This document shows, piece by piece, positions 2,678 to 3,019 of a stretch of 64,000 nucleotides of DNA. The stretch's first letter is position 1, and every line of letters begins with the position of its first letter. The notes under the pieces are model-generated. The model was given only the letters and a program-made list of their open reading frames with translations, did no database searches and was not told the DNA's origin. The position numbers and the translations under genes were made by a program. This DNA is from Escherichia phage VB-EcoM-WM, in the sequence record PQ014731.1; one strand, written 5' to 3'.

Positions 2678-3019
2678 ATGACTACTATGACCGCCGCAGA
2701 AAAAGCTATGCAGATCGCCGCGCTGAAAAAACAGATCGCAGATCTTGAGAACAAGATCGATAACTTTGAAATCGACGAGGACAAGTACGACGAAAACTAT
2801 GATGAATGGTTAGACGAGATCCACGGCGAAATTATGATCGGTAACATTTCTTTTCTTCCGTCGCGTATCCTCAAGGAGTTAGATCCTATCGCTTACCGCT
2901 GCGGATTTAGCGACTACATCGACAGCCTAGATATTGAGGACGATGAGGAATACCAGGAATTGCAGACAGAGCTGGAAGAAGTGAAAGAGGAGCTTTCAGA
3001 GCTGGAAGAAAACGAGTAA
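2678..3019 (+). CDS. highly acidic early protein (113 aa)
   Basis: ORF with AAGGAGAA RBS; very D/E-rich C-terminal half. Confidence 0.6.
   Translation: MTTMTAAEKAMQIAALKKQIADLENKIDNFEIDEDKYDENYDEWLDEIHGEIMIGNISFLPSRILKELDPIAYRCGFSDYIDSLDIEDDEEYQELQTELEEVKEELSELEENE

Follow-up and report, generated by a model that had tools for sequence, protein, structure and literature searches.

The locus treated here raises the question of what a coliphage might gain from a small, very acidic protein encoded behind a promoter-like site of its own. The gene lies at positions 2678-3019, on the plus strand, of a stretch of 64,000 nucleotides (nt) from Escherichia phage VB-EcoM-WM (PQ014731.1), which we call the window, and an earlier note on this DNA had proposed its product of 113 amino acids (aa) as a DNA-mimic or anti-restriction candidate. 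We found that the gene belongs to a large family of phage genes whose products share strong acidity and a core of about 50 residues. We tentatively suggest that the protein is an early, soluble acidic decoy that would bind stoichiometrically to a conserved host protein, at a surface that is basic and probably serves to bind nucleic acid, a suggestion to which we give somewhat less than even weight.

A conserved gene for a very acidic protein

The coding sequence is a real, conserved gene and no chance open reading frame (ORF), since the locus is kept at 93-98% identity in at least 111 phage records and the product matches phrog_9294. A nucleotide search with positions 2400-3400 of the window matched 120 phage records, 111 of which cover at least 80% of the query at the identity just given, and the best matches were to Escherichia phages YP-6 and FV3, which are Vequintavirus (rV5-like myoviruses, ~137 kb). 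The FV3 counterpart, FV3_00176, is a hypothetical protein within a long same-strand run of small hypothetical genes, and no paralogue was found within the window. The match to the phrog_9294 profile spans residues 1-113 (E = 6e-53), and the core region also matches phrog_9396 (E = 1.3e-10, residues 38-104) and phrog_37123 (E = 9.7e-10, residues 39-91). The protein is a direct member of these three PHROG clusters, which are unannotated and supply a name without a function.

The description of the product as small and very acidic was borne out. It contains 13 aspartates and 22 glutamates (35 acidic residues) against 7 lysines and 2 arginines (9 basic residues), with a net charge of -26 and an isoelectric point (pI) of 4.05, and its fraction of Asp and Glu (D/E) of 0.31 places it at the top of the acidity ranking of 144 greedy ORF calls in the window. 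The earlier note had located the acidity in the C-terminal half. This is correct for the last 29 residues, 16 of which are D or E, and residues 81-100 have a net charge of -10, but residues 31-50 are also strongly acidic (net -9).

The assignment of a promoter of its own also stood up, as a sequence-predicted match to the sigma-70 consensus: the site at 2599-2626 is near-consensus, with 11 of 12 positions matched, and the region holds 15 promoter-like sites compared with 5.7 +/- 1.9 in shuffles. A promoter of the sigma-70 type suggests that the gene would be expressed early in Escherichia phage VB-EcoM-WM, and indirect support comes from a homologue, PAK_P3 gp86, that lies in the early region of its own phage. 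By hhalign this protein belongs to the family (96.8%, E = 2.9e-10); a promoter of its own is annotated for the gene, which falls inside the gp74-gp112 block that is the early region by RNA sequencing at 3.5 min (PMC4933390). Four homologues from Autographiviridae (Providencia phage PSTCR2, Pelagibacter phage HTVC048P, Pseudomonas phage Lepni01 and phage Phi NF-1) have class I early positions, their genes coming after the left end of the genome and before the gene for RNA polymerase or primase. In PSTCR2, the homologue directly follows the gene for an S-adenosylmethionine (S-AdoMet or SAM) lyase, an anti-restriction enzyme of the T3 gp0.3 type (PF23780, E = 3.4e-34). At the level of the family, early expression is well supported.

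A conserved core with variable appendages

A word-indexed homology search gave 66 relatives, the most distant of which is 33% identical in the alignment. In alignments A1 and A2, conservation is concentrated at residues ~36-84, with the signature YDxxLDExYG...PSRILKELDPIAYRCGFSDY. Y73 and D79 are invariant, and Y41, L45, S62, L65, E67, D69, P70, I71, A72, C75 and G76 are at least 90% conserved. Run with the relatives' alignment, AlphaFold2 predicted the full protein with a mean predicted local distance difference test score (pLDDT) of 90.2 and a predicted template-modelling score (pTM) of 0.67; the core alone (residues 31-88) reached a pLDDT of 90.2, equal to that of the full-length protein. 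The predicted secondary structure elements are given in Table 1.

Both terminal helices are of the coiled-coil type, since the 3-4 spacing of hydrophobic residues is clean in each. The seam of the N-terminal helix consists of I13, L16, I20, L23, I27 and F30, and that of the C-terminal helix, for which full-length relatives have the consensus EYxELxxELxELExEL, of Y92, L95, L99, V102, L106 and L109. Variation among 34 close orthologues is lowest in the core, with a mean difference per position of 0.043 against 0.113 for the N-terminal helix and 0.080 for the C-terminal tail, and 15 of the 33 positions in the N-terminal helix segment vary among close orthologues. The 28 C-terminal residues are exactly IEDDEEYQELQTELEEVKEELSELEENE. 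The D/E-rich C-terminal stretch to which the earlier note drew attention turns out to be a variable heptad helix that is missing from most of an unbiased sample of metagenomic members. The earlier note had also set a simple coiled coil against a DNA mimic. In the predicted structure, this description fits the two flanking helices but not the globular core, and the distinction is a weak one, given that T7 gp5.9, a DNA mimic, is itself a coiled coil (PMC9836394).

Foldseek searches of 350,542 PDB chains with the full-length and core-only models returned nothing at E <= 0.001, and in a profile search of all PDB chain sequences the matches were limited to occludin and designed coiled coils, with E >= 0.02. 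All the matches in a fold search of BFVD were uncharacterised proteins of Clavibacter, Gordonia, Pseudomonas and Pseudoalteromonas phages. The core thus has a confidently predicted fold without a solved relative in the PDB.

The family is large and unannotated, and it is found almost exclusively in lytic phages. When 1.84 billion representatives of 50%-identity clusters were searched exhaustively with the profile, 3,843 matched at E <= 1e-3 and 1,847 at E <= 1e-10. Scans of Pfam, NCBIfam and PADLOC found no model for the core and only sub-threshold coiled-coil families (GvpG, HalX, SlyX, LmuB), the Pfam matches of the window protein being the 25 best of 42 listed at E <= 10. The database names GvpG, SbcC ATPase and Zn-ribbon given to family members are coiled-coil artefacts. 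By tblastn, the core was detected in 199 annotated phage genomes, 114 of them of Vequintavirus type at 90% identity or more and the other 85 below 60%, the distant carriers including Pseudomonas, Vibrio, Providencia, Klebsiella, Proteus, Pelagibacter and Microbacterium phages; nearly all of the matches listed are labelled hypothetical, and the few other labels look like annotation noise. No study of the family came up in our literature search, which covered anti-defence genes of Vequintavirus, the functions of PAK_P3 early proteins and new DNA mimics. Among 185,579 bacterial and archaeal species genomes, prophages included, the family occurs on 5 contigs of metagenome-assembled genomes only, and among 72,556 plasmids (PLSDB) no member was found except on CP057073.1. 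This 137,565-bp E. coli 'plasmid', which carries the gene at 98% identity, is most likely a Vequintavirus phage genome mis-filed as a plasmid.

From IMG/VR, 80 loci picked via the core motif yielded 49 non-redundant members. Most are short, with many of 53-74 aa that amount to scarcely more than the core, and the arrangement of N-terminal helix, core and acidic C-terminal helix occurs in only 4 of the 49 (L003, L008, L009 and L010). An acidic C-terminal extension of at least 20 aa is found in 190 of 200 single-domain relatives pooled from the word-indexed and profile matches; since the flanks are part of the query profile, the long form is enriched in the top 150 profile matches. Other members end in a Cys-rich CPxCG...CC tail (P0061, P0063-65), and two to three tandem cores per chain are present in P0101, P0139, P0148, P0153 and P0179. 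These proteins and P0114, all metagenomic, 211-559 aa long and with two or three tandem cores, have no Pfam domain. Several of the tandem-core proteins contain a DRNKDGKISSWE stretch that resembles an EF-hand calcium-binding loop, together with a C-terminal hydrophobic anchor.

Strong acidity is common to every family member, core-only forms included. The net charge of the 200 single-domain relatives is -9 to -46 for the whole protein and -7 to -19 for the core envelope; that of the 49 IMG/VR members is -4 to -32, with the core-only forms of 53-65 aa at -11 to -15. The conserved properties are thus the core fold and its charge. The coiled coil is an interchangeable appendage, one of several, and a domain definition for the family should rest on the core and not on the coiled coil.

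A possible host-directed decoy and its rivals

What the core might act on can be approached through its genomic neighbours, which are overwhelmingly small ORFans. When neighbours within 4 genes were clustered all-against-all and those within 2 genes were scanned against Pfam and PHROG, no majority partner emerged, and no Pfam or PHROG family occurs in more than 3-4 of the 122 neighbour proteins (48 loci). A link to the sliding clamp, raised by a DNA polymerase III beta-like gene within 2 genes downstream in 2 of the first 4 contexts, failed in the wider sample, where a clamp-type match (DNA_pol3_beta_3) was obtained for 1 of the 122 proteins from the 48 loci. The lack of a conserved phage-encoded partner, together with the unrelated replication and transcription machinery of the carriers, favours a target in the host.

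In the reading that we prefer, the domain of ~50 residues (helix/beta-hairpin/helix/helix) would be the working part of the protein in lytic phages of many bacterial phyla, and its acidic core would bind a basic surface of a host protein stoichiometrically. The density of charge makes the protein itself unlikely to bind nucleic acid. The protein bound might be a nuclease of a defence system, a complex for DNA repair, or a component of transcription or of the nucleoid. The heptad helices at the two ends would be accessory elements of the Vequintavirus version and would probably oligomerise the protein; an oligomer would present two or more cores per particle plus an extended acidic rod. The recurrence of either coiled-coil flanks or tandem cores suggests that more than one core per particle is useful. 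Host-protein binding, a nucleic-acid-binding target and oligomerisation by the flanking helices are all inferred. Taken together, the conserved acidity, the early expression, the restriction to lytic phages, the lack of a phage partner and the apparent multivalency fit a stoichiometric acidic decoy. The abundance of the family in metagenomes and its near absence from bacterial genomes and plasmids are also in favour, and there is precedent in the small, dimeric, acidic phage proteins Ocr, Gam and gp5.9, which are DNA mimics (PMC9836394).

Several points weigh against such a decoy. Many small early phage proteins are acidic without having a decoy role, and the conserved residues Y41, L45, L65, P70, I71, A72, Y73 and G76 are hydrophobic or likely structural. 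Little weight can be put on the adjacency to slots of ocr or SAM lyase: the neighbours of T7 gene 0.3 are host-takeover, and not anti-defence, genes. Finally, the associations with Kyano_Gp96 and phrog_3199 seen in a minority of loci, described below, could indicate a phage-encoded partner.

A bolder version of the decoy reading, which we consider unlikely, is that the core represents a new structural class of phage nucleic-acid mimic or decoy with which thousands of lytic phages neutralise one conserved host DNA-binding machine early. The target, for example a complex for restriction or repair, a transcription factor or a nucleoid factor, would be hit in the first minutes of infection, and the coiled-coil flanks or tandem repeats would supply multivalency. 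If the protein is indeed a host-directed decoy, a widespread new fold would join the list of phage DNA mimics and inhibitors (Ocr, ArdA, Gam, gp5.9), and a function would be assigned to a family of 1,847 clusters (E <= 1e-10) for which neither a Pfam model nor a solved structure exists. The family also occurs in therapeutic-candidate phages, namely rV5-like coliphages and PAK_P3-like Pseudomonas phages.

The minority associations are the basis for an alternative that we regard as improbable, in which the protein is a partner or regulator of another phage protein and might, for instance, serve what a small adjacent gene encodes as antidote, chaperone or adaptor. A phrog_3199 gene lies directly downstream here (3107-3352) and also in the unrelated T7-like phage PSTCR2, where the phrog_3199 member (L090 3257-3595) is directly 3' of the family member, but no such pairing was seen in the other ~80 loci examined, and phrog_3199 is present in many phages outside the family's tblastn matches. 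Kyano_Gp96 (PF23790, function unknown) is fused to the family C-terminus in P0098, beyond which no fused Pfam domains were found among the long relatives. It is encoded near the family in L004 (775-1104) and Lepni01 (L092 1182-1496), with matches in 2 of the 122 scanned neighbours, adjoins the family or lies within 2 genes of it among the neighbours in L041, L042, L047 and L068, and a related 'WSKTTSRHIN' protein cluster is found in 6 of 49 loci. This association may reflect a functional link. Against a general partner, phrog_3199 and Kyano_Gp96 are each absent from most loci and are unrelated to one another (hhalign probability 0.3%).

An Ocr-like anti-restriction protein, an acidic dimer that would mimic DNA and block type I restriction-modification (RM) systems and perhaps BREX, is a subset of the decoy reading, reasonable as a hypothesis but improbable in our estimate. 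The composition of the protein is almost identical to that of Ocr (PMC4872106), and the family occupies early slots, once right beside the SAM lyase (PSTCR2), though there the homologue accompanies the lyase instead of replacing it. Homology to Ocr was not detected, with a probability of 0.2% over 9 aligned columns in an hhalign comparison of profile A2 with T7 gp0.3. No Ocr or ArdA model is among the 25 best of the 42 Pfam matches listed at E <= 10, and the PDB gave no fold match, with no Ocr entry among the listed Foldseek matches of the full and core models. The comparison with Ocr- and ArdA-like folds therefore came out negative, with no sequence or fold relationship to either, and membership in Ocr or ArdA is excluded. 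Plasmids, which carry ArdA and KlcA, are also without the family.

Published plating data for the BASEL phages neither support nor refute the anti-restriction reading. The BASEL text describes Vequintavirinae as 'exceptionally susceptible' to RM systems (PMC8594841), and the raw data limit this susceptibility to type II and III systems (PMC8594841 S1 Data). Bas57, Bas58 and Bas59 carry family orthologues at 95% identity or more (P0012; H44). Their efficiency of plating (EOP) is 0.06-0.83 with EcoKI (9-15 sites) and 0.22-1.0 with EcoCFT_I (4-6 sites) (PMC8594841 S1 Data, S5 Table), yet it drops to ~1e-4 to 1e-3 with EcoRI, and plating is essentially plaque-free with EcoRV and EcoCFT_II (PMC8594841). 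The carriers thus tolerate the first two systems and are hit 10^3-10^4-fold or more by the last three, in contrast to the small siphovirus Bas01, which has 3 EcoKI sites and an EcoKI EOP of ~2e-4, a restriction of about 10^4-fold (PMC8594841). This pattern would suit an Ocr-like protein, but the phi92-like phage Bas60, with 12 EcoKI sites, is equally tolerant (EcoKI EOP 0.13-0.72; PMC8594841 S1 Data), and no family member turned up when 150,000 of its 150,425 bp were searched in six frames with a hidden Markov model (best E = 0.9). Because Bas60 is tolerant without a family member, type I tolerance does not track the gene, and the type I tolerance of large E. coli myoviruses is not attributable to it. 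As a broader observation on these phages, Bas57-59 and the phi92-like Bas60-62 (9-15 EcoKI sites) are restricted less than ~10-fold by EcoKI and EcoCFT_I, and several type II and III systems abolish the plating of Bas57-62 (PMC8594841 S1 Data).

It is very unlikely that the gene is a dispensable early ORFan without a specific molecular function, its acidity being a by-product of coiled-coil composition. Small non-essential genes abound in the early regions of large lytic phages, and the flanking helices yield many spurious coiled-coil matches, but the core of ~50 aa, with two invariant and eleven at least 90% conserved residues, is kept across phages of Proteobacteria, Actinobacteria and marine hosts, is the least variable part among close orthologues, and is equally acidic in core-only members.

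A prefoldin-like holdase or assembly chaperone, with two long antiparallel coiled-coil helices on a small oligomerising beta-hairpin platform, is highly improbable: the best full-length PDB fold matches are prefoldin beta subunits (1fxk_B, template-modelling score 0.44-0.45), among 34 relatives 3 have a match to Pfam Prefoldin_2 (best E = 3.6e-5) and 1 has one to Prefoldin, the Phi NF-1 homologue matches Prefoldin at E = 0.005, and prefoldin subunits have a similar size and low pI (those of the beta class are also ~110 aa, acidic and built as N-helix/beta-hairpin/C-helix), but the Foldseek match is not significant (E = 1.6, probability 0.44), no Prefoldin model (PF01920 / PF02996) is among the 25 best Pfam matches of the window protein, for which the matches are sub-threshold and seem to reflect coiled-coil composition, prefoldin is not matched to any notable degree by the core-only model, and the three extra helices of the predicted core are unknown in prefoldin. 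Since most family members are without the long helices, the likeness is confined to variable appendages.

Surrounding features and known systems

The features of the locus are collected in Table 1.

Table 1. Features at and around the acidic gene; positions are those of the window, and residue ranges are those of the 113-aa protein.
Feature	Position	Strand	Remarks
Sigma-70-type promoter-like site	-35 TTGACA 2599-2604; -10 TATACT 2621-2626	+	16-nt spacer; 11/12 consensus matches
Shine-Dalgarno sequence AAGGAG	2664-2669	+	8 nt 5' of ATG; read from sequence
Coding sequence, 113 aa, ATG start	2678-3019, including stop codon	+	Orthologue of FV3_00176 and bas59_0104; phrog_9294 member
N-terminal amphipathic heptad helix, residues 6-28	2693-2761	+	AlphaFold helix 6-28 (predicted); variable appendage
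Conserved core domain, residues 34-84	2777-2929	+	Predicted helix 34-49 (YDxxLDE), beta-hairpin 52-59, helices 61-68 and 70-83 (PSRILKELDPIAYRCGFSDY)
C-terminal acidic heptad helix, residues 85-113	2930-3016	+	16 D/E in 29 residues; AlphaFold helix 90-111 (predicted)
Hairpin GATGGCCTT-GACTCC-AGGGCCATC	3032-3055	+	13 nt past stop codon; contains TTGACT, a -35-like hexamer
Next gene, 81 aa	3107-3352	+	phrog_3199, E = 3e-26

The hairpin behind the stop codon is likely a promoter-embedded stem-loop for the next gene. TAAACT lies 18 nt downstream of it, with a promoter-like site at 3039-3068, and the RNA fold of 3017-3075 has an energy of -21.4 kcal/mol (z = -6.3). Identical or near-identical copies of this GC-rich, 24-nt hairpin are found at 2410-2433, 3032-3055 and 6763-6786, and a diverged copy near 3353-3400. 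The recurring hairpin stands just 3' of stop codons, and every copy has a T-run on its 5' side, an A-run on its 3' side, the TTGACT hexamer inside and TAAACT 18 nt downstream. A canonical intrinsic terminator at 3032-3055 was ruled out because neither strand has a U-tract after the hairpin.

Three further ORFs in the window are strongly acidic: 4523-5146 (plus strand, 207 aa, net -22), 15288-15638 (minus strand, 116 aa, net -22) and 42493-42825 (minus strand, 110 aa, net -17). None of them has a Pfam match, and they are equally valid candidates for acidic decoys in this phage. Elsewhere, the ORF calls in window positions 1-1450 and ~9550-12250 are short, low in D/E and of mixed strand, and these segments may be non-coding or may hold very small genes; ARAGORN found 0 tRNA genes in positions 1-14000. 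We also noticed 17 GenBank 'Campylobacter phage' records (MG0656xx, host C. jejuni) that are 94-96% identical to E. coli Vequintaviruses at this locus, which suggests that these entries are mislabelled or contaminating phages.

Among known systems, ArdA and KlcA (ArdB) of plasmids and integrative and conjugative elements are likewise acidic and are expressed first on entering a new host, but they are carried by plasmids, unlike the family described here, and for ArdA there is neither a Pfam match among the 25 best listed nor a fold match. Ocr (T7 gp0.3), which mimics DNA and inhibits type I RM and BREX, is an all-helical, elongated, banana-shaped dimer, whereas the conserved unit of the window family is predicted to be an alpha/beta core of 50 aa. 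In size and charge, Ocr is a near-twin: it has 116 aa with 34 acidic and 6 basic residues (PMC4872106), compared with 113 aa, 35 acidic and 9 basic residues in the window protein. Like Ocr, the window protein would be expressed early from a promoter of the host type, and the T7-like homologues are situated in the same left-end class I region.

In this respect gp5.9 is different, as T7 gene 5.9 is a class II gene and not the leftmost early gene. Among PDB chain sequences at E <= 10, no match was found beyond generic coiled coils. T7 gp5.9 is a small protein of pI ~4, a parallel coiled-coil DNA mimic that blocks RecBCD, and it displays Asp and Glu on a coiled coil braced by a short beta element (PMC9836394), just as the window protein is predicted to combine D/E-covered heptad helices with a beta-hairpin. 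The functional body of gp5.9, however, is the coiled coil, whereas in the family the coiled coils are variable add-ons to a conserved part that is predicted to be globular.

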